A stretch of DNA of 64,000 nucleotides from a virus (Duplodnaviria > Heunggongvirae > Uroviricota > Caudoviricetes): IMG/VR virus record IMGVR_UViG_3300028048_000051, positions 111,843 to 175,842 of that record. The stretch is one strand, 5' to 3'. Position numbers and translations under genes: made by a program. Of this stretch, positions 1 through 60,522 are shown in pieces. How positions within the stretch are numbered: position 1 is the stretch's first letter; the number at the start of each line of letters is the position of its first letter. Below the pieces are notes generated by a model that worked only from the letters and a program-made list of their open reading frames with translations, made no database searches and was not told the DNA's origin.

Positions 1-162
1 ACCGGCCGCACAAGCTGCAGTTCACCTAATCTGCAGAACTATCCGTCGCGGGACAAGGAATATCCGTTGCGCAACATCTTCATGCCTCCGGAGGGGTTTG
101 TGTTGTGCGCTACGGACTTTTCCTTCATAGAGTCGAACGAGCATGGCTCTCTTGCCGGGTAA
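1..162 (+). CDS. polA: Family-A DNA polymerase (Pol I-like) fragment, 5'-truncated by window edge, ending inside motif A
   Basis: Frame 1 reads ...SPNLQNYPSRDKEYPLRNIFMPPEGFVLCATDFSFIESNEHGSLAG*, matching the Pol I region NLQNIP...DYSQIELR. In-frame TAA at 160-162. Confidence 0.7.
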   Translation, partial: TGRTSCSSPNLQNYPSRDKEYPLRNIFMPPEGFVLCATDFSFIESNEHGSLAG

Positions 163-1129
163 CCGACATGACAAAAGAAAGTGAATTGCTGGAACGCCCA
201 ATGTGCGTAAGCATAATGGCCGATCAGCAGCCGATCAAGGATCGCCTAAACCAGAGGCATGGCGACCGGAAAAGGTTCATCGACCATCCGAAAGGAGTAG
301 GACTCTTCGTCCGAAGCGCTCCATCCCCGGAAACAGGGATGATGATATGGTCAGACCCCGCAGGAATGCGGAAAGGAGAAGAAAGTACATGAAGAACAAA
401 CACGGTGTTATCTACAAGATAGTATGCGCTCTCCACGAGCCGCACGTTGTCTATGTAGGGAAGACAACCCAAACACTGACCGGAAGACTCAGTCATCATG
501 CGGCCAGGCAACGCAAGCCCACAGCTATCAATAAATTGATAAGAACTGTAGGAAAGCAGTATTTCAGTATAGCGAAGATAGCTGAATCAGACGATCCGGT
601 AGAGTTGGCAGCACTGGAGAAGCGCTACATACAGGAATATAAATGCCTGTACAACAAGCGTATTGGCGCAGACTTCACGGAAAAGGATGTGCAGGAAGCA
701 CGAGAAACCTGCTACAAGAACAGGGCCGTGATCTGCGACGAAATGGGTACTGCCTACATATCCAGCGCAGAGGCAGCACGAGCCTTGGGATTGTGCGGTA
801 GCGATGTTCAGGAATGCTGCGCAAAACACCTGCAGCAGACCAAAGGCCTCCATTTTCGGTATGCTGACATGCCGCGCGAGGGTTATGTCGAATATTGGAA
901 CAATTCCATGATCCACAGAAACCGGCGTGTGCACTGCCCGGAGCTTCGTCAGACCTACGTGAATTGTCAGGCTGCAGCCACGGCTACTGGAGTGTCGAGA
1001 GACATCGTTTATCGTCAGTGTAATCACAAGGTTGCCAATTCCCGCTGTGGCTACACCTTCATGTACGAGGACTCGAAATGAGTATGCGCGTTCGCACAAA
1101 GTTGCCTTACGCGGTTCGGCAAATCGCGT
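163..1129 (+). mobile_element. Insertion interrupting polA at motif A; carries a GIY-YIG homing endonuclease gene (candidate group I intron or free-standing HEG that splits the gene)
   Basis: polA reading frame stops at 162 and resumes at 1130 with the motif A continuation (MADIINAGLDPH..., then KxxNFG motif B and VHDE motif C). There is 226 nt without an ORF before the HEG gene. Confidence 0.45.
389..1081 (+). CDS. GIY-YIG family homing endonuclease
   Basis: N-terminus MKNKHGVIYKI...VVYVGKT is the GIY-x10-YVG motif. A C-terminal helix-turn-helix-like segment (SSAEAARALGL) follows. Sits inside the split polA. Confidence 0.8.
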   Translation: MKNKHGVIYKIVCALHEPHVVYVGKTTQTLTGRLSHHAARQRKPTAINKLIRTVGKQYFSIAKIAESDDPVELAALEKRYIQEYKCLYNKRIGADFTEKDVQEARETCYKNRAVICDEMGTAYISSAEAARALGLCGSDVQECCAKHLQQTKGLHFRYADMPREGYVEYWNNSMIHRNRRVHCPELRQTYVNCQAAATATGVSRDIVYRQCNHKVANSRCGYTFMYEDSK

Positions 1130-1945
1130 ATGGCAGACATCATCAACGCCGGCTTGGACCCCCACCGTTGGTTCGCCGCGGTGAAGGCCCATCGGATAAC
1201 GACAAAATTGGACTTCATCCATGATCCCAAAGCCTGCGAAGATTTCAATGAATATTTGAAGCAAATCGTCTCCAAAGAGGAGCGGCAATTTGCAAAATCT
1301 TCAAATTTTGGGTTCCCGGGAGCGTTGGGCGCCAAGACTTTCTGGCGAAATTGCCGGGAGCAAGGAGTCGTGATGACTCTGGAGGAAGCCGCCGAGGCCC
1401 GCAAGGCCTGGATCGACGCCTTCCCCGAGATGCGGTATCACATGAAGCCGGAAGAAATCAAAGAAGATGCGAGGACACTCGCTAAATACGGAGGGGACAT
1501 CGATGAAGATGAAATAGAGATCGAAGGCAGCGAATCGTCGCGGCAAAGGTACAAGGCCACAACCATTACGGGGTTCAGGAGATACAACTGCTCCTACAAC
1601 TCTGCCTGCAACATCCACTTTCAGTCGGTAGTTGCCGAAGGAGCCAAGGAGGCGATGTGGAATCTACTGGCCAATGGTTTCGCCGACCGGATGGTCAACT
1701 TTGTCCATGATGAGGTCCTCTACTTGCTACGGATCGCGGAGCTTTGCGAGCGGATCCCTATAGTAGAGAAGTTGATGATCGCCGGGATGAAGAAAGTGAT
1801 ACCGGACGTCAAGGTGGGCGTGGAGAGTTCTGTAATGCGCCATTGGGATAAGGGCGCCGTGGAATTCGACAAGCTGGAATGGAAAGACGGCCGGCCGATA
1901 ATCGAAGAACCGGCATTTGTAAAGGGGCTGTACGCCCAAGGTTAA
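1130..1945 (+). CDS. polA: Family-A DNA polymerase C-terminal fragment (motif A tail, motif B, motif C)
   Basis: RQFAKSSNFGFPGALG is motif B (R..K..NFG..YG); VHDEVL is motif C; the start aligns with the Pol I sequence following DYSQIELR. Confidence 0.8.
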   Translation: MADIINAGLDPHRWFAAVKAHRITTKLDFIHDPKACEDFNEYLKQIVSKEERQFAKSSNFGFPGALGAKTFWRNCREQGVVMTLEEAAEARKAWIDAFPEMRYHMKPEEIKEDARTLAKYGGDIDEDEIEIEGSESSRQRYKATTITGFRRYNCSYNSACNIHFQSVVAEGAKEAMWNLLANGFADRMVNFVHDEVLYLLRIAELCERIPIVEKLMIAGMKKVIPDVKVGVESSVMRHWDKGAVEFDKLEWKDGRPIIEEPAFVKGLYAQG

Positions 1946-1981
1946 CAAAATGTGCATAACGCACGGAAAGAGAGAAGAGAA

Positions 1982-3409
1982 ATGCAAAGCATGGTAGGAG
2001 AAAGGCGTCAAAGCCAGCAGGTGCGACTGGGCCTCGTTCGTCCGGATTATCAAACCGGGTACGAGATCCCGTTGCTCCCGTATCAGAAGCGTGGTATTCT
2101 GAGTCGTGAGTTCTGGCCGAGCAGGGATCAGATCGTTCGCATCATCCCGGGCTACGATCCGGATACCGGCGAGATCTTTCCTCAGAACATCAACGTCAAC
2201 GAATTCGCCACGGATTCCGCGTATGCGGATTATCTGAGCGACACCTTCTGTACCGCATCCATCATGAGTGGGTTCGGCGGAGTCGGCAAGTTGCTGATCG
2301 CCGATTATCTTCCGGGAAGCGGGGAGGCTGAACGTTATGGCGGAAATACCGTTCTGCGGTGTTTCGCCAATACGATCTTCAACAGCCTCCGTGCCGAAAA
2401 GGAGAAGAAGGAAGTCCGCTGCAAGGGGATCCCCGAGTGGAAGGAATGGATGGGGCGTCAGGGGAAGCTCCCTCTGCCCCGTACTGCACTGCTTATGCAG
2501 GCGCTGATGTTCAAGATCAACGGCGAGTACATGCAGACGCGGGATGCGGATCGTGACGGGAACGAGGACGTCCTGTCCGGACCTTCCGGAGAGCCGCTTC
2601 CGCTGCTGGGAACTATTGCGATGGGCCAGAAGGAATCCATCAAGCAGTTGTTGCAGGCGTTGGTCGAACCTCAGGACAACAACAAACCGCTGAACGCACT
2701 CACCAACAACAAGTATGGCGGCATGGCGGAAGCGGAAGGGAACATCCTGTATCTCAACACGGTTTCCAATGCCGAAAAGACGCGGAACTATCTGCGTCCG
2801 CATGTGCAGGAAGCGGCCAAAGGGTGGAATCCTCACCCGTTCCCGCTGACCCCCGAGCAGATCAGGGCATTGTGGGTGCCGTGGCGTAAGCTGCTGCATT
2901 TCATGACGCCCGAGGAGCAGATGGAGGTGCTGACCGCAGAATTCGGTGCAGACAGCGTGAACTATGTGATCGGTCTCGATCCGCGATTCCGCGATCTGCC
3001 GATTCCGGAGTTCATCGCCAAGGCCGGATTTGGAAGGTATGCCGCCCTCACCGGGACTGCCAAACTGCCGACTGTCGCGGCTGCTCCTGTGGTGACGGCT
3101 TCGGTGTCTCAGGCTGCCGAGGAAGACGGGATCCCGATGGGATCGGCTCCTGCAAAGCCCTCCGGACTCAGTGGCCTCGGTGGGCTCGGTGGTTTGTCCA
3201 CTGGCATTTCCACGCCGAAACCCGCTCCCCGAAACGAAATGGCCCCCGGTATTGGCGTCGGGTTGGCTGCGCACACTCCGGTGGACAGTGAGGCCATACA
3301 GCGCGAACTTCAGAATATGAAGGAGAACGGGGTGTCCAACCCCGCCGCATCGCGCGAGATGGCCGAATCACTGCTCGTAGATTGTGACGTCAACAAAGAC
3401 GCCGAATAA
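1982..3409 (+). CDS. hypothetical protein with Gly-rich C-terminal region
   Basis: Long + strand ORF with a purine-rich ribosome-binding site before the ATG at 1982 (the track ORF begins at a GTG at 1952). No motif recognised. Confidence 0.55.
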   Translation: MQSMVGERRQSQQVRLGLVRPDYQTGYEIPLLPYQKRGILSREFWPSRDQIVRIIPGYDPDTGEIFPQNINVNEFATDSAYADYLSDTFCTASIMSGFGGVGKLLIADYLPGSGEAERYGGNTVLRCFANTIFNSLRAEKEKKEVRCKGIPEWKEWMGRQGKLPLPRTALLMQALMFKINGEYMQTRDADRDGNEDVLSGPSGEPLPLLGTIAMGQKESIKQLLQALVEPQDNNKPLNALTNNKYGGMAEAEGNILYLNTVSNAEKTRNYLRPHVQEAAKGWNPHPFPLTPEQIRALWVPWRKLLHFMTPEEQMEVLTAEFGADSVNYVIGLDPRFRDLPIPEFIAKAGFGRYAALTGTAKLPTVAAAPVVTASVSQAAEEDGIPMGSAPAKPSGLSGLGGLGGLSTGISTPKPAPRNEMAPGIGVGLAAHTPVDSEAIQRELQNMKENGVSNPAASREMAESLLVDCDVNKDAE

Positions 3410-3429
3410 TCTTTTTCGGAGAACGGTAA

Positions 3430-4797
3430 ATGGCCAATTCATTCATATCTGACATGATGGCCGATGTGGTCAAGGGCAGCAAGCCTGGGGCTATAGCCAC
3501 CGTGCAGGAACTGAAGGAAAATCAGTTCGGGCTGCCCCTGCCCCATTACGCGCAACAGTACCTCTTTGGGAGTACAGGCCTCCGACTGCGGACGTTCCAT
3601 TCCATAGCCGGGGTTCCTGCCTCCTGCAAGAGTCCATTGCTGTTCGATCTGATGGGACACATTTGCGCCGCACCGGACATCGGTGGTCTTGGTGGAATTG
3701 GATTCCTCTATGAATTGGAAGATAAGATCTCGCCGAGTTTGCTCGATTCGATGATGCGTCCATACGGAAACATCATCGGGGAGACGTTCCGGGTTATCCA
3801 GGACATGACCATCGACGAGGCTTTCAAGCATTTGACGCTGACTGTCATCGTCAATTACCTGAAGCGCATAACCGCAAGGAATGTGCCTCTGGTAGTCGGT
3901 ATGGATTCCATTGGCGGCGCCGCCTCCGCGGACACCGTCAAGAAAATCATGCAGGAAGGTAACGCCGGCAAGGGGTTCTACGAGAAGTCACACTACGTGA
4001 AGTACTTCTGCGAGAACATGTCCAGGATCATGGAGGATATTCCGATGGTGGTGATCTGTGTAAATCAGGAAAAGGAGAAAGCCTCCAGTGCTCCTGGCTA
4101 CGCAGGTCCGCCTCAGAAGCAGATCACCGGCGGCGTGAGTCAGATCTTCAAAGATGGACACATGATTTCGGCCACCTTCAAGACGCTTGCGTCCGGGGAT
4201 GGAAAAATCGTGACGTTGCGTACCACGAAGACCAGTTTCAGCGACGCCCGGAAGATCGAAGTTCGCTTCATGTGGAACAAATTCGGTACGAGCGAAGAGG
4301 ACTATTACGGTCATCACTTCGACTGGGCTCTGGCCTCGGCTAAGTGCCTTGCCGATCCGGAAAAAGGTGTAGGCGAACTGCGCTCCATAGCGGATGTGAA
4401 GGTGTCGGATGCAAATCTTGTCACCTGTCCGCAGTTGGGGTGCAAATCGGTCAAGCCCGAGGAATTCGAGCAGGCGCTCTTCGAGAACAAGGAGGTACTC
4501 AACGCGCTGTACGTCTATCAGAAGATCGACAGGATCAAGGACGTGAATGCGTACGTCGAATATCTGGAAGCCCTGAAGAAGAGCGGCAAGAAGGGAAAAG
4601 AGGCGGAGGTGATTCAGGTCGATAAACCCAAAAAGGGTGCGGCCAAGAAAGGTAAAGCCAAGCCCCAGGAAGACGTTGCCGCTCCTCCGGAGATGACGAA
4701 GGTCAGACCCTTGATGAGTTTTTCGCCGTCTGCCGAGGACAAGGAGGACGAGGATGACAAACCAAGCGTCTCCTCAGATAGCCGCGTTCTTGAGTGA
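3430..4797 (+). CDS. RecA-like recombinase (UvsX/Sak4-like) with non-canonical Walker A and a Lys-rich C-terminal tail
   Basis: GVPASCKS aligns to the RecA Walker A GPESSGKT. RNVPLVVGMDSIGGA resembles RecA VDVIVVDSVAAL. VVICVNQ resembles RecA LIFINQ. Confidence 0.5.
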   Translation: MANSFISDMMADVVKGSKPGAIATVQELKENQFGLPLPHYAQQYLFGSTGLRLRTFHSIAGVPASCKSPLLFDLMGHICAAPDIGGLGGIGFLYELEDKISPSLLDSMMRPYGNIIGETFRVIQDMTIDEAFKHLTLTVIVNYLKRITARNVPLVVGMDSIGGAASADTVKKIMQEGNAGKGFYEKSHYVKYFCENMSRIMEDIPMVVICVNQEKEKASSAPGYAGPPQKQITGGVSQIFKDGHMISATFKTLASGDGKIVTLRTTKTSFSDARKIEVRFMWNKFGTSEEDYYGHHFDWALASAKCLADPEKGVGELRSIADVKVSDANLVTCPQLGCKSVKPEEFEQALFENKEVLNALYVYQKIDRIKDVNAYVEYLEALKKSGKKGKEAEVIQVDKPKKGAAKKGKAKPQEDVAAPPEMTKVRPLMSFSPSAEDKEDEDDKPSVSSDSRVLE

Positions 4798-7036: not shown

Positions 7037-7757
7037 AAAACTGCATATCGTCAGAGTGCGTGGACGTGGTGACGGGACGTTCTATGATCCGCAGGCAGAT
7101 TTCCGCGGGATCTTGCCGAACATTGCTGTGCTCACACTCGGTGAATTGGAGGATTCGACAGAGGACCAGGAAGCGAAACAGGCGTACAAACACCTGTATC
7201 ACAGTTTCCGGATCTTCCAGTTGAGACTGCTGGAGGACAGCACCCCGTTGAACGAGCAATTGAAGTTGTTCCATACCGCGGTGAGCACCGTTCCTCTGAA
7301 ATATCGGGAAACGTGGCGTGCGGCGTTCATGGAAGTGCTGTTGTCGTTGTATGCATTGCTCATGCGTCGAGATCAGCCGATGCGTGGACGGGACTTCAAG
7401 GATCTCGTTAATGCCGCAGGGATGCTCAGCCTGCAAAAGAGACTGTCTCCGGAACACTATCGGCAGGTGTGTTCCTGGCTCGGAGAAGAGGGCGTGGATT
7501 CCACGTTTCCGGTATCGCAGGAGTCCACCGCCATATGTGAAGAGACAGGAGACAAGTTCACGAGGTTGCGGGACATTGCCGCCAGACTGGTCAACGCCGA
7601 CGGTGCCGAAACATGGGAGGAGATGGCTGATTTGTGCGACAAGCAGTTCAATGCTGATGGTCTTGCCGACGTGGAGAACATTGCGCTGGCTTTGGCTTAT
7701 CCCACCTACCGGCATCCGACGATGCGTGTGGAAGTGGAGGAGGAAGATGGAAGGTGA
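7029..7757 (+). CDS. hypothetical protein
   Basis: ORF with GAGGA ribosome-binding site before the ATG. Confidence 0.55.
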   Translation: MDKKLHIVRVRGRGDGTFYDPQADFRGILPNIAVLTLGELEDSTEDQEAKQAYKHLYHSFRIFQLRLLEDSTPLNEQLKLFHTAVSTVPLKYRETWRAAFMEVLLSLYALLMRRDQPMRGRDFKDLVNAAGMLSLQKRLSPEHYRQVCSWLGEEGVDSTFPVSQESTAICEETGDKFTRLRDIAARLVNADGAETWEEMADLCDKQFNADGLADVENIALALAYPTYRHPTMRVEVEEEDGR

Positions 7758-9542: not shown

Positions 9543-10499
9543 ATGTTTGATTTCGATATGCCTCCCATCTCATGGAGGGAAGCAAGGATTCCCAAAAAAT
9601 CCGGGGGATTCCGTAAACTGGAGATCCCCAACGACGAGTTGAAGGCGGTACAACGTACTATCTTACAATACTTGTACCGTAACAAACGGCTTCGTCCGTC
9701 TGCCATGGCCCACGGGTTTGTTCCGTTCAGGAATACCTGCACGGCCCTGACACACCACAATACCAAAGCACCGATTATTCTGTGCATGGATATCCATGAC
9801 TTCTTCGGGACCTTTCCCCTGGAACCGGTGCGGGGGCGAATGCTGTCTGCCGGGTTGCCGGCTACTGTGGTGGACAAAATCCTGTCTGTCTGTACCTACA
9901 AGGGACATTTCCCTCAGGGTGCTCCGACTTCGCCGTATCTTACCAACATCGGAATGTTGGACACCGACAGGGTGCTTGCCGCCTACGCGTCGCGCCATGG
10001 TTACATCTACACCAGGTATGCCGACGACATTACCTTCTCTCTGAAGTCGTCTGAAAGGCCGATCAAAGGACAGGCATTCATTTTCTACGGCGTGGAGAAG
10101 ATTCTCAGTGTGATGCTGGGTATTCATCTCAAGAAATCCAAAAGTCACATCATCGACATCAAAGGTCGTGCCGCACGTCGCGTCACCGGTGTCGTGGTGC
10201 GCAAAGACGGGCTTGGGTTCAATGCACCGCGGAAAATGCGTAAAAACACTCGCGCCGGTATTCATAACCTGGCGGAGAAGATCAGGAAAAATCGAGGCAG
10301 GGTTTTCGACGAGGACCATCTGAAGTGGCGTGAACTGCTGGGTTATGCCAGGTACATGGATACGCTGCGCAGTTACAGCCCGGAACCGCAGGCGGCCGGA
10401 GCCGATCCGACGATATCTGAGATCGACTGGCGCTATCTGTGTCGGAAATTCAATTACAAGAAAGGATTGGAAGATGGAAATGGAACAATTCCCGATTGA
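9543..10499 (+). CDS. reverse transcriptase, small retron/DRT-like (RT domain only, 318 aa)
   Basis: Contains motif 1/2 IPKKSGGFRKLEIP, motif A ILCMDIHDFF, motif B' QGAPTSPYLTN, motif C YTRYADDITF, motif D/E LGIHLKKSKS, and an RRVTGVVV 'VTG' motif typical of retron-type RTs. Confidence 0.85.
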   Translation: MFDFDMPPISWREARIPKKSGGFRKLEIPNDELKAVQRTILQYLYRNKRLRPSAMAHGFVPFRNTCTALTHHNTKAPIILCMDIHDFFGTFPLEPVRGRMLSAGLPATVVDKILSVCTYKGHFPQGAPTSPYLTNIGMLDTDRVLAAYASRHGYIYTRYADDITFSLKSSERPIKGQAFIFYGVEKILSVMLGIHLKKSKSHIIDIKGRAARRVTGVVVRKDGLGFNAPRKMRKNTRAGIHNLAEKIRKNRGRVFDEDHLKWRELLGYARYMDTLRSYSPEPQAAGADPTISEIDWRYLCRKFNYKKGLEDGNGTIPD

Positions 10500-20758: not shown

Positions 20759-23700
20759 ATGTCGCTTACACAGATTGTGAAGCGGGACGGGACGACCGTG
20801 CCCTTCAACGAGACCAAAATATCCACCGCCATCGAGAAAGCGCTCGCCTCCGTAGGTATGAAGAGCGATCGTCTGATGAAGCTCGTGACCCGCGATGTAC
20901 TTACTGCACTTAAGGATCATGAGGGAATACCCACGGTCGAACAGGTGCAGGACATCGTCGAGCGCATGTTGACCAAACGCGGGCTCTACGCGGCGGCTAA
21001 GTCATTCATTCTCTACCGGGCGCAGCATGAAAAGATGCGCGACGGTAAAGAGCTGATGATGGATATCAGCGGTCTCATCAATGCCTACCGGGACCAGTCC
21101 GACTGGCGGGTTCACGAGAATGCGAACAGTGGATACAGCTACAGCAGTTTGCTGAAGCATGTTTCCAGCAGCGTGATGGCCAAGTACGGTCTGATGGAGC
21201 TGTATCCGCCGGAGATCGCTCGTCATCATATCGACGGTGATTTCCACATTCATGACCTGCAGTGCAGCATCATTCCGTACTGTGCTGGTCACTCGTTACG
21301 GGATCTCTTGCTCAAGGGTTTCAAAGGAACTCCAGACAAAAATACCGCAGGTCCGGCCAAGCACCTGGCTCCGGCGTTGCAGCAGGCGGCGAACTTCCTT
21401 GCCACGTTGCAGACCGAGTGGGCGGGGGCTCAGGCCTTCAGTTCCTTCGATACTTACATGGCCCCGTTCGTGAAAGTAGACAAGGAATACTTCGCCAAGC
21501 GCGGTTTCGCCAACTGGGGGTATACCGAGGTCAAGCAGGCGCTTCAAATGTTTTTGTACGTGATCAACGTCGCCTCGCGCTGGGGCGAATCGCCGTTCAC
21601 GAACATCACCATGGATCTAGTCTGTCCCCCGGACATGAAGGACCAGCCGGTAATCATCGGCGGTGAGTACGTAGACGGTCTCCATTATGGCGATTGTCAG
21701 GAAGAGATGAATATGCTCAACAAGGCGTTCATCGAACTGATGATGGCCGGGGACTATGAGGGCAAGCCGTTCAGCTTCCCGATTCCGACGTACAACATTA
21801 CGTCCGAGTTCGACTGGGAAAGCGATCTTTCTCGGGACCTGTTCGCACTGACCGGCAAGTATGGTATTCCGTATTTCCAGAACTTCATCGGCAGCGACAT
21901 AAGTCCGCAGGACACCCGCTCGATGTGCCCCATGGACGGTGATACGCCGGTGTGGGTCAAGGCTGGCAGGGGCATCCATATAAGAAAGATCAAGGATGTT
22001 TATCACCAGCCGGGCGGATATGTTGAACCTTTCCAGACATTGCTTCCTGATGGCAGCTGGGTTTCCGCCAGGGCAACCAGGCAGGAGCCGACAGACGTCA
22101 TCGAGGTGGAGCTGTCAAACGGCGATAAAAAGACGCTCGGAGTGGAACACATCCAACCCATCGTCAACCCGGATGGAAAGCTCGTCAGTATACGTGCCGC
22201 AGAGATTGAAAACGGGATGTATATTCCGTATTCGCTCGGAGGCATGGATACGGGGTGTGTGGGCAGCTACGATCTCGGATATGTTGTCGGGGTGTATCTC
22301 GGCGACGGGTCTACCGATGAGATCAACCGAGACGGGGAGAAGAATATCATCTTCTCGCTGTCGGCCTCCAAAGTCGATAAAACAGGTAAACCCGTAGCTG
22401 AGCGAATACGCGAATTTTTCCAGCCCATGGGCTTCGCAGTCACGGTCACTCCGCACGAGGACAGTCCGTTGATCACCGTAAGAGCCACAGGTCCGGCGTT
22501 TCATGTCATATCTCGCTTCATAGACGGAAATGACGCGAATGACAAAAGCATGACGCGCTATGTGTTCAATATGTCCTCGGAGTTCCGCCAAGGTGTGTTG
22601 GATGGCATACAGGATACTGACGGCTGCAGAGTCCGTCGCAGAATCTACACCTCCTCTCCTGCCCTGAGAGACGACCTGTTCAACTTGTGCTACTCTTTGG
22701 GCATCAAAGCCAGAAAGGTGTACACGGATGTCCGGGACAATCGGATCTCGCCCAACTCCAAGCCTGTGTACAGAATCGACTATACGCTTCGTAGCGGGTA
22801 CGGAGAGCTGTATAAAGAACTGGGCGGTTATTCTTGTGTATCGGTGGTGTCAGTCAAGCGGGTGAAAAACGGCAAGGCGCTCTACTGCTTTGAGGTGGAT
22901 ACGGACGAGCATTTGTTCGTACTCCCCGGCGGTATGGTCACGCACAACTGCCGCCTGCGTATCGACCTGCGCGAACTTCTCCGCAAGACCGGCGCGTTGT
23001 TCGGCTCGGGTGAAAAGACCGGCAGTATCGGCGTGGTGACGCTGAATATGCCGCGTCTCGGATACCTCCACCAGGGCAACGAGAAGACGTTCTTCGCGGC
23101 CTTGGAGCAGCTGATGGACGATGCGCGGGATTCGTTGGAGATCAAGCGCAAAGTGGTCGAGCGCAGCCTCAACAGTGGGCTGATGCCGTACTCGAAGGAG
23201 TACATCGGTTCATTCGACAACCACTTCAGCACCATCGGACTCGTCGGCATGAACGAGTGTTGTTTGAACTTCATGGGTGTGAATATCGCAGACCCCAAGG
23301 GCAAGGACTTCGCAGTCCGGGTCCTGAAGTTCATGCGTGATCGGCTCTCCTTCTATCAGGAGGAAACCAAGCACCTATACAACCTGGAAGCCACTCCGGC
23401 CGAGGGCACCTGCTACCGGCTTGCCAGAGCTGATAGGAAGGCGTATCCGGATATTATCACCGCCGGCGGAGATGGGGAGCCGTACTACACGAACTCCACG
23501 CATCTGCCGGTAGGTTATACGGATGACGTCTTCAAGGCTCTCGACCATCAGGAAGAGCTGCAGACTATCTACACCGGCGGTACTGTGGTTCATGTGTTCC
23601 TCGGCGAGGGTATCCAGGATCCCATGCAGTGCATGAAACTGGTGAAGAAAATCGCGGAAACCTACAAGATCCCTGCGTTCACCATTACTCCCACATACAG

Positions 23701-23815
23701 TGTGTGCCCGGAACACGGGTACATCAAGGGCGAGCATAAGCGGTGCCCGAAGTGTGTGGAGGTCGAAGTGTCCGGGGAAGAAATCATCAAACAAATGAAG
23801 GAAGAAGGAAAATGA
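20759..23815 (+). CDS. nrdD: anaerobic ribonucleoside-triphosphate reductase (class III) large fragment, intein-containing
   Basis: N-terminal ATP-cone (IVKRDGTTVPFNETKISTAIEKA). C-terminal CPEHGY...CPKC Zn-site half. The glycyl-radical motif is in the next overlapping ORF. Confidence 0.85.
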   Translation: MSLTQIVKRDGTTVPFNETKISTAIEKALASVGMKSDRLMKLVTRDVLTALKDHEGIPTVEQVQDIVERMLTKRGLYAAAKSFILYRAQHEKMRDGKELMMDISGLINAYRDQSDWRVHENANSGYSYSSLLKHVSSSVMAKYGLMELYPPEIARHHIDGDFHIHDLQCSIIPYCAGHSLRDLLLKGFKGTPDKNTAGPAKHLAPALQQAANFLATLQTEWAGAQAFSSFDTYMAPFVKVDKEYFAKRGFANWGYTEVKQALQMFLYVINVASRWGESPFTNITMDLVCPPDMKDQPVIIGGEYVDGLHYGDCQEEMNMLNKAFIELMMAGDYEGKPFSFPIPTYNITSEFDWESDLSRDLFALTGKYGIPYFQNFIGSDISPQDTRSMCPMDGDTPVWVKAGRGIHIRKIKDVYHQPGGYVEPFQTLLPDGSWVSARATRQEPTDVIEVELSNGDKKTLGVEHIQPIVNPDGKLVSIRAAEIENGMYIPYSLGGMDTGCVGSYDLGYVVGVYLGDGSTDEINRDGEKNIIFSLSASKVDKTGKPVAERIREFFQPMGFAVTVTPHEDSPLITVRATGPAFHVISRFIDGNDANDKSMTRYVFNMSSEFRQGVLDGIQDTDGCRVRRRIYTSSPALRDDLFNLCYSLGIKARKVYTDVRDNRISPNSKPVYRIDYTLRSGYGELYKELGGYSCVSVVSVKRVKNGKALYCFEVDTDEHLFVLPGGMVTHNCRLRIDLRELLRKTGALFGSGEKTGSIGVVTLNMPRLGYLHQGNEKTFFAALEQLMDDARDSLEIKRKVVERSLNSGLMPYSKEYIGSFDNHFSTIGLVGMNECCLNFMGVNIADPKGKDFAVRVLKFMRDRLSFYQEETKHLYNLEATPAEGTCYRLARADRKAYPDIITAGGDGEPYYTNSTHLPVGYTDDVFKALDHQEELQTIYTGGTVVHVFLGEGIQDPMQCMKLVKKIAETYKIPAFTITPTYSVCPEHGYIKGEHKRCPKCVEVEVSGEEIIKQMKEEGK
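21926..22948 (+). mobile_element. intein (341 aa) with LAGLIDADG homing endonuclease domain inside nrdD
   Basis: Begins CPMDGDTPVWV (block A) and ends VTHN followed by extein Cys (CRLRIDL). LAGLIDADG motifs LGYVVGVYLGDGS and FRQGVLDGIQDTDGC. Confidence 0.75.
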
Positions 23816-26226: not shown

Positions 26227-27387
26227 ATGTACAAAATTGCAGAGAATGTCCTGTCATGGTGCAATGATCCGGAGTCCGGAGCGCAGTTTCAGGCGATGAA
26301 TATCTCTCGCCATCCGTGTCTCATTGGCAATGTGTGTCTCATGCCGGACACGCATGAAGGTTACGGCATGCCGATAGGCGGCGTGGCGGCATTTGAAAAT
26401 GCCGTCTGTCCCAACATGGTCGGCGTGGATATCGGCTGTGGGATGCTCGCGGTGAGGACATCCATCATCGAAAAACCCGGTCGTGAGGAGCTGTGTCGGG
26501 TCGTACAGAAGATACGAGCGTCCGTTCCTGTCGGGACTTCCCATCAGAGTACACCGCAGCCCGACGAATTGTTCGACGAGCCGATTTGGAGCAGTAACAG
26601 TGTTTGCGGGTTTGAGTGCGAAAATGCCAAGCGACAACTTGGTACGCTCGGCGGTGGCAATCACTTCATCGAGCTGCAGTGGGGTGATGATGGGCATATG
26701 TGGCTCATGATCCATTCCGGCTCACGTAATCTCGGTAAAAAAGTTGCCGATTATTACAACAACATCGCGGTAGAACTCTGCACCAGATGGCGGCAGATCG
26801 AGTGCGTCAGGGATCAACTGGCTTTCTTGCCTCGCGGCACCACGGAATATACTGATTACATGCGCGAGATGAACGCCTGCATACGTTTCGGTCAGGCCAA
26901 TCGTCGACATATTGCCGATGCCGTGATCCGCGCGATCAGTGAGGTATTCAGCAGCCAATGTCCTGATTTTGCCGATCCCATCAACATCAAGCACAACTAC
27001 GCCACTCTGGAACATCACTACGGCAAGGATGTCATGGTACACCGCAAGGGCGCTACGCTTGCCAGGAAAGGCGTCATCGGTATCATTCCCGGGTCACAGG
27101 GCAGCTGCTCGTATATCGTGGAGGGTCTGGGTAACGAGGCGTCGCTTTGTTCCTGTTCACACGGAGCCGGCCGCAGAATGTCGCGTTCGCGCGCACGCTC
27201 AGTGTTGAGTCTTGAGGACGAGGTTGCCAAGATGGATGCTTGCGGCATAGTGCATGGCATCAGCTGTGCCGATGACCTGGACGAGGCGCCGTCCGCGTAC
27301 AAGGACATAGACACTGTCATGCGGGAGCAGGCTGATCTGGTGAAGCCGTTGGTGCAGCTTAGCCCGTTGGCGGTCATCAAAGGATAG
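26227..27387 (+). CDS. rtcB: RtcB-family RNA ligase
   Basis: MPDTHEGYGMPIGGV, GGGNHFIE, HRKGAT and SCSHGAGR are RtcB active-site motifs. CAAGGAGGAAAACCA ribosome-binding site. Confidence 0.9.
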   Translation: MYKIAENVLSWCNDPESGAQFQAMNISRHPCLIGNVCLMPDTHEGYGMPIGGVAAFENAVCPNMVGVDIGCGMLAVRTSIIEKPGREELCRVVQKIRASVPVGTSHQSTPQPDELFDEPIWSSNSVCGFECENAKRQLGTLGGGNHFIELQWGDDGHMWLMIHSGSRNLGKKVADYYNNIAVELCTRWRQIECVRDQLAFLPRGTTEYTDYMREMNACIRFGQANRRHIADAVIRAISEVFSSQCPDFADPINIKHNYATLEHHYGKDVMVHRKGATLARKGVIGIIPGSQGSCSYIVEGLGNEASLCSCSHGAGRRMSRSRARSVLSLEDEVAKMDACGIVHGISCADDLDEAPSAYKDIDTVMREQADLVKPLVQLSPLAVIKG

Positions 27388-60295: not shown

Positions 60296-60375
60296 GGGGC
60301 CGGAAGAGGTTCGACGGGGCGCAAAGCCAAAGCGCAAAGCTCCGGACAGGGATTCGATTCCCCTCGGCTCCACCA
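60296..60375 (+). ncRNA. tmRNA tRNA-like-domain mimic (5' and 3' tmRNA termini fused, about 80 nt, genomically encoded CCA, G3·U70 acceptor pair)
   Basis: GGGGCCGGAAGAGGUUCGACGGGG... resembles the tmRNA 5' end GGGGCUGAUUCUGGAUUCGACGGG. ...GGACAGGGAUUCGAUUCCCCUCGGCUCCACCA resembles the tmRNA 3' end GGACGCGGGUUCAACUCCCGCCAGCUCCACCA. No mRNA-like domain. Confidence 0.45.
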
Positions 60376-60388
60376 ATTCTTTCATGGG

Positions 60389-60461
60389 GGCGCGGTAGCT
60401 CAAAGGTAGAGCTCTCGACGCTTAATCGAGCGGGTGAAGGTTCGAGTCCTTCCTGCGCCCC
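60389..60461 (+). tRNA. tRNA (anticodon-loop positions give CUU = Lys, but with unusual G at position 33)
   Basis: Acceptor GGCGCGG/CUGCGCC; U8A9; D-stem GCUC/GAGC; anticodon stem CUCGA/UCGAG with loop CGCUUAA; T-arm GAAGG-UUCGAGU-CCUUC. Confidence 0.65.
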
Positions 60462-60522
60462 CGTCATTTTATAAATCAATATGGACGTCATCCACGGTGG
60501 GTGGCGTCCTTTTTATTTCCCA

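Follow-up and report, generated by a model that had tools for sequence, protein, structure and literature searches.

A probable mobile group I intron of subgroup IA2 with a GIY-YIG endonuclease gene at motif A of a phage family A DNA polymerase gene

Results and discussion

The polymerase gene and its interruption

The sequence analysed here, a stretch of 64,000 nucleotides (positions 111,843 to 175,842, one strand) of the IMG/VR record IMGVR_UViG_3300028048_000051 assigned to Caudoviricetes (the window hereafter), opens inside a gene for a family A DNA polymerase, the coding sequence of which is interrupted at motif A by an insertion carrying a gene for a GIY-YIG homing endonuclease. The insertion is very probably a mobile group I intron of 949 nt (window 134..1082), belonging to the subgroup IA2 and placed between the first and the second base of the leucine codon that follows the conserved sequence DFSFIE. 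The N-terminal remainder of the polymerase is encoded further upstream on the contig (L001 7114..8790; window position x corresponds to x+8628 of L001) in an open reading frame (ORF) of 558 aa, with exon 1 starting at position 7114 and with replication genes (SbcCD-like, helicases, DnaB-like) as neighbours.

In the window, frame 1 of positions 1..162 reads ...SPNLQNYPSRDKEYPLRNIFMPPEGFVLCATDFSFIESNEHGSLAG-stop (i.e. ...TGRTSCSSPNLQNYPSRDKEYPLRNIFMPPEGFVLCATDFSFIESNEHGSLAG), with the stop at 160..162, and the downstream ORF, extending from ATG1130 to 1945, opens with MADIINAGLDPH. Both pieces match the Pfam profile DNA_pol_A, the upstream one at profile positions 118-163 and the downstream one at 186-380, so that the break falls at motif A, and the GIY-YIG ORF lies between them. 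This arrangement had been recognized in a first-pass annotation made from the sequence alone, as had the 226 nt devoid of an ORF before the endonuclease gene (indeed, 163..388 contains no convincing ORF). The same annotation misdrew the exon limits and gave the length of the insertion as 968 nt: polymerase coding ends at position 133, not at 159, and restarts at 1083, not at 1130. Splicing in silico at the boundaries justified below yields a message of 2511 nt that specifies, in frame, a single polymerase of 836 aa. This protein has one match to Pfam DNA_pol_A (PF00476; residues 451-805) with 87.2 bits, compared to the cut-off of 34.3 and to the 33.2 and 37.5 bits that the two fragments score singly, and it exhibits the family A motifs DFSFIE (from residue 544), NFGFPG (624) and HDE (758).

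Boundaries of the intron and the pairing of its internal guide

Related loci were retrieved from IMG/VR with the C-terminal fragment of the polymerase and then with the spliced protein in tblastn searches, the alignments of which break after E549 both for the window and for every relative that has an intron at the motif A site. The polymerases of the loci L003 and L008 are uninterrupted throughout, and those of L002, L004 and L006 are uninterrupted at the motif A position. Intact homologues (P0003; L003, L004, L006, L008, L223) read DFSF[IV]E-L-C[AG]FAQxCYxRFGxSxM[RA]DIINAG, with intron-less alleles having GAG CTT/CTC/CTA/TTG TGY, i.e. E-L-C, at the critical position. Exon 2 should start at about 1083, because frame 2 past the endonuclease stop (UGA 1079-1081) reads V-CAFAQSCLTRFGKSR-MADIIN and thus matches the intact homologues; the methionine of MADIIN is a conserved internal residue of these homologues and not a gene start. 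U133|U1083 was chosen as the only pair that meets both the U(-1) and the omega-G rules and gives leucine, placing the predicted 5' splice site after U133 and the 3' splice site after G1082. The resulting junction, GAG-U|UA-UGC, specifies ...DFSFIELCAFAQSCLTRFGKSRMADIIN..., with E-L-C as in every uninterrupted homologue. Joining the end of exon 1 (...TTCATAGAGT) to the start of exon 2 (TATGCGCGTTCG...), spliced RNA would be expected to contain GAGUUAUGCG.

The pairings of the internal guide fit the same boundaries. In P1, AGAGU (129-133) pairs with GCUCU (146-150) via the U133.G146 wobble, and this helix covaries: L005, L007 and L219 have the exon sequence GUUGAGU facing the guide GCUCAAC, with positions -5 and -7 changed on both sides relative to the window and L217. 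In P10, the intron leader CGAACGAGCAUG pairs with positions 1083..1094 of exon 2 (UAUGCGCGUUCG) at 11 of 12 positions (ΔG -13.8 kcal/mol), a pairing matched in strength by 8 of 1000 shuffles. The equivalent helix has a different sequence in L217, where it comprises 16 bp, and in L005, where it comprises 13 bp, and it is weaker in L007 and L219. Each of the five same-site introns has P1 and an extended P10, with differences that compensate one another, and the P10 of the window intron is unusually long.

Structure of the catalytic core

An Rfam search, recommended by the first-pass annotation, produced a match to Intron_gpI (RF00028) at 110..373 on the plus strand that spans the full model (positions 1-253) with 52.1 bits (E-value 8.6e-12), compared to a gathering score of 50 bits; it is the sole match to this model within the 64 kb. 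The P1 alignment offered by Rfam itself (114..134, with splicing after U119) was rejected, as it would turn the conserved DFSFIE codons intronic and the homologues disagree with it. The helices assigned to the core are listed in table 1. The presence of both P7.1 and P7.2 between P7 and the 3' strand of P3, joined by G-U-A, is a hallmark of the subgroup IA2 (PMC3428280), and the window intron is assigned to this subgroup because it has the P7.1-GUA-P7.2 arrangement. Folding of the whole intron by minimum free energy does not recover the core, as expected from the pseudoknot and the length of the molecule, and was used only to point to two long-range helices, P10 and the helix closing the ORF, each of which was then assessed on its own by shuffling.

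Compensatory change in the core was assessed in two sets of sequences, namely three same-site introns, from which the covariance model R1 was built, and an alignment (A4) of family members. In the former set, 94.2% of cells are paired, and in the latter, comprising 20 distinct members, 94.4%, both percentages being inflated by the fact that the structure was derived from the tested sequences and A4 was fitted to the model. Changes on both sides of a pair occur in 11 of 46 pairs of the trio, compared to 0-2 double-changed pairs in slid controls, and none of 500 shuffles matches the observed value; among the 20 family members double changes affect 28 of 42 pairs, compared to 7-11 in the slid controls. 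Apart from its one copy in the window, R1 finds 21 further matches in related loci, and the cores of the relatives score 173-232 bits. A looser core pattern recurs in more than 120 viral contigs and a subfamily-specific pattern in 18, often several times per genome of 110-194 kb, so the window intron belongs to a large family of phage introns.

The place of the small putative P2 hairpin is taken in L217 by GCGGC-GCAA-GCCGC, and the introns of L005, L007 and L219 are without P2. In the window, the stop codon of the exon 1 frame (UAA 160..162) sits in the GUAA tetraloop of this hairpin, upstream of the core. The exon 1 frame likewise terminates before P3 in L005 and L007, and in L217 it is open through the core.

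Table 1. Features of the interrupted polymerase gene and further insertion sites in related polymerase genes (helices numbered with the window as reference).
Feature	Position (window, unless stated)	Strand	Remarks
Polymerase exon 1, 3' end	1..133	+	Frame 1; ...CATDFSFIE plus U133, first base of the Leu codon
Group I intron, IA2 (very probable)	134..1082	+	RF00028 match; intron-less homologues; U(-1)/omega-G rule; P1/P10; ends with omega-G1082
P1 exon strand	127..133	+	AUAGAGU; U133 is the 5' splice-site U; pairs with 146..152
Intron leader, P10 strand	134..145	+	CGAACGAGCAUG; 3'-exon-binding part of the internal guide
Internal guide, P1 strand	146..152	+	GCUCUCU
P2 hairpin, small (putative)	154..167	+	CGG-GUAA-CCG core, GNRA loop; predicted from sequence
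Catalytic core P3-P9	173..375	+	Rfam, same-site intron comparison, covariation
P3	180-183 / 317-320	+	Core assignment
P4	187-192 / 224-229	+	Core assignment
P5	196-198 / 218-220	+	Core assignment
P6	230-232 / 274-276	+	Core assignment
P6a	239-246 / 261-267	+	Core assignment
P7	281-286 / 348-354	+	Core assignment
P7.1	287-289 / 294-296	+	UCC-GAAA-GGA at 287-296; GAAA loop
GUA linker	297-299	+	Between P7.1 and P7.2
P7.2	300-303 / 309-312	+	GGAC-UCUUC-GUCC at 300-312; covaries
P8	322-327 / 336-341	+	Core assignment
P9	358-361 / 368-371	+	Core assignment
Shine-Dalgarno-like AAGGAG	373..378	+	10 nt upstream of the endonuclease AUG389
Closing helix, 5' strand	385..394	+	GUACAUGAAG; contains the endonuclease AUG; perfect 10-bp complement of 1057..1066
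GIY-YIG homing endonuclease gene	389..1081	+	230 aa; 3' of P9; stop UGA adjoins omega-G
Closing helix, 3' strand	1057..1066	+	CUUCAUGUAC; inside the last endonuclease codons
Polymerase exon 2	1083..1945	+	Frame 2; (L)CAFAQSCLTRFGKSRMADIINAG...YAQG-stop; carries motifs B and C
Other insertion site	Residues ~320-334 of spliced protein		Not a named motif
Other insertion site	Residues 516/517 of spliced protein		SPNL|QN
Other insertion site	Residues 623-627 of spliced protein		Motif B, NFG|FPG
Other insertion site	Residues 758/759 of spliced protein		Motif C, VH|DE; used in L007 and L219, not in the window

Distribution of related introns and of other insertions in the polymerase gene

The relatives of the window polymerase differ in what occupies the motif A site. 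Besides the uninterrupted genes described above, there are those of L005 and L007, in which an intron devoid of an ORF (248 nt in L005, 229 nt in L007) precisely separates residue 549 from residue 550; the cores of these two introns are about 80% identical to window 173..375, and both introns end exactly before UAUGCG. The sole relatives of the window endonuclease in a collection of 5.8 billion proteins, P0035 (50% identity) and P0036 (43%), are encoded in same-site introns (L217, L219-L222), again 3' of P9. That some relatives have both the intron and the endonuclease gene, others the intron alone and others neither may be attributed to homing presumably driven by the endonuclease. Searches of the GenBank phage collection produced no nucleotide or protein match, and this collection thus holds no annotated relative.

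The motif A site is one of several at which polymerase genes of these phages are interrupted, and a single related gene can hold up to three insertions. Insertions at the other sites were seen in L005 (1597..1853 and 2432..3466), L007 (4595..5507), L002 and L004 (approx. 1600..3250), L006 (2802..4000) and L219 (2474..2702 and 3147..3888); several of them have Rfam or R1 group I matches, and some contain a second GIY-YIG-like ORF. A sister intron subfamily is represented in L002 (1676), L004 (1686), L094 and L202-L216 (contigs of IMG/VR 3300045988 and others). It is distinguished by a long conserved 3' extension (...GAAGCCC...GATAAGCCGGG...GAACAAGAACCACGAGGTC...) and a single phage genome (about 130-190 kb) can contain as many as four copies of it.

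The endonuclease gene and the closing helix

The protein encoded within the intron matches Pfam GIY-YIG (PF01541) with an E-value of 4.3e-8 (33.8 bits, the cut-off being 22.6) and PHROG 314, homing endonuclease, with 6.3e-10. The motif residues Y9, Y22, R33, E77 and N89 are shared by all three family members, which are 42-49% identical. For C-terminal DNA-binding modules (NUMOD or I-HmuI-like), the matches to PF22083 (E-value 0.024) and NUMOD1 (0.1) are both below threshold; two internal repeats are visible in the protein. A sequence search against PDB chains returned only noise, revealing no similarity to solved GIY-YIG structures. The protein is presumably an active homing endonuclease.

The start of the endonuclease gene and its last codons are complementary over 10 bp (table 1), and none of 500 shuffles reaches the duplex energy of this closing helix in the window. 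In L217 an analogous helix lies over the AUG, and in L219 one lies over the Shine-Dalgarno sequence. A helix of this kind would make the ORF a closed peripheral loop, set the 3' tail of the intron beside P9, and limit translation of the endonuclease.

Weighing the evidence and alternative explanations

The proposal of the first-pass annotation that the insertion is a group I intron with a GIY-YIG gene is thus supported by an Rfam score above the gathering threshold, by ORF-less homologues at the same site, by covariation, and by the fit of P1 and P10. Several points weigh against it. The Rfam score of the window intron only barely exceeds the threshold, the P1 alignment proposed by Rfam is incorrect, and the pairing percentages are inflated as explained above. 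The model yields neither a convincing P9.0 nor precise tertiary contacts for the 3' tail. Statistical support for the closing helix is clear for the window alone and weaker for L217 (73 of 500 shuffles) and L219 (53 of 500). Finally, the ligated-exon sequence GAYTWYTCNTTYRTNGAGTTATGCG had no match in the metagenome contigs scanned, which thus gave neither a spliced cDNA nor an intron-less TTA allele; a looser ligated-exon pattern recovered from viral contigs only intron-less alleles, with CTN or TTG.

The insertion might instead no longer splice, leaving a true split gene whose two products, an N-terminal one that finishes with ...IESNEHGSLAG and a C-terminal one that begins with MADIIN at ATG1130, together make up the polymerase. 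The first-pass annotation kept this option in reserve, and it has in its favour that both pieces are ORFs, one with a stop and one with an ATG, that public gene callers list them as separate genes, and that the metagenome contigs scanned yielded no spliced sequence. We nevertheless regard it as highly unlikely. The 16 conserved codons in 1083..1129 (CAFAQSCLTRFGKSR) contain no in-frame ATG, GTG or TTG and come right after the in-frame UGA 1079, and therefore could not be translated unless spliced; ATG1130 is devoid of a Shine-Dalgarno sequence or other ribosome-binding site, and its methionine is internal and conserved in the intact homologues. The downstream piece thus lacks what would mark a two-subunit polymerase, namely a translation start of its own at the boundary of the conserved sequence. 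The tail following IE is itself unconserved (SNEHGSLAG-stop in the window, W-stop in L005, and some 70 more codons running into the core in L217). The ribozyme core, P1 and P10 are maintained by compensatory changes.

It is likewise very improbable that we are dealing with a decaying element, in which the intron and/or the endonuclease would be inactive, the polymerase a pseudogene, or the genome defective or misassembled. The marginal Rfam score and the lack of direct evidence for expression speak for such decay. However, the exons are intact across 836 codons with all motifs present, two independent contigs contain the same sequence, the endonuclease family retains its conserved motif residues, and the changes in the core are compensatory rather than random.

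The precise splice sites suggested by the first-pass annotation, after U144 and after G1132, can be practically dismissed. The product, ...DFSFIESNEH-ADIINAG..., would be in frame, and the U(-1) and omega-G rules would formally be satisfied, but such splicing would remove 16 conserved residues and insert SNEH, although every intact homologue keeps ELC[AG]FAQxC...M between IE and DIINAG. Position 144 falls within the P10 guide, and no guide pairing fits 144/1132, in contrast to 133/1083, with which P1 and P10 accord in five lineages; moreover, the ORF-less introns of L005 and L007 stop exactly before UAUGCG. An alignment with intron-less homologues had been suggested as a check on the proposed junction; uninterrupted polymerases were indeed found, and the junction that they support is a different one, U133|U1083. 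A fusion of the endonuclease to the C-terminal part of the polymerase through a recoded or suppressed UGA (1079..1081) deserves hardly any credence, for the endonuclease and exon 2 do share a frame in the window and, with UAG as the stop, in L217, but the endonuclease gene of L219 is read in another frame and has 48 nt in common with exon 2, so the coincidence of frames is not conserved, the only tRNA of the window is a Lys-CTT and no suppressor, and the neighbouring genes are normal under the standard code.

A mechanism for splicing and homing

For the group I intron bounded by U133 and U1083, the sequence comparisons predict the following course of splicing. The pre-mRNA would fold into the P3-P9 core, and the internal guide (134..152) would align both exons, its 3' part GCUCU with the end of exon 1 (P1) and its 5' part, i.e. 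the whole 12-nt leader, with exon 2 over its first 12 nt (the long P10). Guanosine would attack after U133, and the 3'-OH of exon 1 would then attack after omega-G1082, giving ...GAG UUA UGC... and hence a continuous polymerase. The helix 385-394/1057-1066 would loop out the ORF, bring the 3' tail to the core and cover the endonuclease AUG. The endonuclease presumably cuts intron-less alleles near the motif A site and in this way would drive homing.

A more specific role of these elements can be suggested only tentatively, and we consider it rather doubtful. In this family of same-site introns, the entire leader of 12-19 nt would act as an unusually long guide for the 3' exon (P10 of 11-16 bp), and in the copies with an endonuclease gene the ORF-closing helix would hide the start codon or the Shine-Dalgarno sequence of the 700-nt ORF; the two could together form a dedicated device by which the ribozyme reaches a 3' splice site at a distance of 700 nt. 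Such a device could also make translation of the endonuclease depend on how the RNA is folded or spliced, the enzyme then arising solely from intron RNA that is misfolded or has been excised.

Other features of the window

Several further features were noted in the window. An NrdD (anaerobic ribonucleotide reductase) ORF of 1018 aa at 20759..23815 (+) contains, at about 21926..22948, an insert of some 340 aa that resembles an intein: it starts ...TRSM|CPMDG and ends ...VTHN|CRL, includes the LAGLIDADG-like block LGYVVGVYLGDGS, and has weak matches to the Pfam profiles Intein_splicing and LAGLIDADG_3. A reverse transcriptase gene at 9543..10499 (+; Pfam RVT_1, 7.6e-20; PHROG 2825) is possibly part of a diversity-generating retroelement, and a gene for an RtcB-type RNA ligase lies at 26227..27387 (+; PHROG 1075, E-value 6e-115). 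The tRNA-Lys(CTT) gene at 60389..60462 (+) was called by both ARAGORN and Rfam. Directly upstream of it, an 80-nt stretch (60296..60375, +) scores 52.2 bits with the Rfam tmRNA model (threshold 47), with no call by ARAGORN, and may be a tRNA-like fragment.

Comparison with known introns and implications

The phage T4 introns in td and nrdD (sunY) encode the GIY-YIG endonucleases I-TevI and I-TevII. In the sunY intron, as in the window intron, the ORF comes after the catalytic core and the 3' splice site is remote, and in the T4 introns the translation start of the endonuclease is occluded by RNA structure, which is what the closing helix would achieve in the window. The window intron differs from both T4 introns in its host gene and in that the P10 of its family, with 11-16 bp, is far longer.

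With regard to the host gene, the nearest parallels are the IA2 introns in family A polymerase genes of the phages SPO1 and SP82 (I-HmuI/II), Bastille (I-BasI), PhiI and W31 (I-TslI; T7-like phages), Xanthomonas phage phiL7 and the cyanophage Pf-WMP3 (I-PfoP3I) (PMC3428280). They share with the window intron the host gene family, the P7.1-GUA-P7.2 arrangement, insertion at a catalytic motif, and a homing endonuclease gene. However, all their enzymes are HNH nickases, encoded by ORFs located in P6a or P8 or spanning the core, whereas the window intron has a GIY-YIG enzyme encoded 3' of P9; and they are inserted at the sites 676, 881 and one in the fingers, in contrast to the motif A site (DFSFIE|L) described here. 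Polymerase genes with multiple introns, and GIY-YIG enzymes in other host genes, are known from Bastillevirinae (PMC11878797), and intron-rich gut phages include the Jug phages (PMC12880540) and the zeta crAss-like phages (PMC12386605). Like these, the phages studied here have polymerase genes split by one to three group I introns, a variable presence of introns and endonucleases among close relatives, and inteins in nrdD, the one in the window being putative; they constitute an uncultured and unclassified group with contigs of approximately 165-195 kb, the window having a G+C content of 52%, unlike the zeta phages listed in PMC12386605.

Group I introns with homing endonucleases have been known in phage family A polymerase genes since SPO1, and the window element is an ordinary mobile element of this kind, with particulars of modest novelty, namely insertion at motif A, an enzyme of the GIY-YIG type, an ORF placed 3' of P9, and a long P10. 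It adds the motif A site and a GIY-YIG endonuclease to the phage polymerase introns so far described with HNH enzymes. In this phage lineage, the SPNLQN motif, motifs A, B and C, and the site at residues ~320-334 of one polymerase family are each a target of introns. The long P10 and the ORF-closing helix may serve as a tidy natural example of the selection of a remote 3' splice site, with no new principle involved.

The main value of the finding concerns annotation. The public proteins P0001, P0008, P0012, P0013, P0017 and P0019 start the C-terminal part of the polymerase at an internal methionine (MTLEEA...; ATG 1373 in the window), which is preceded within the coding sequence by an AGGAG resembling a Shine-Dalgarno sequence, and are thus truncated to about 190 aa. 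Since public calls begin at this internal methionine, the polymerase is systematically mis-annotated in this group of phages; its correct product would be one enzyme of 836 aa in place of the two or three unrelated short ORFs of the public calls.

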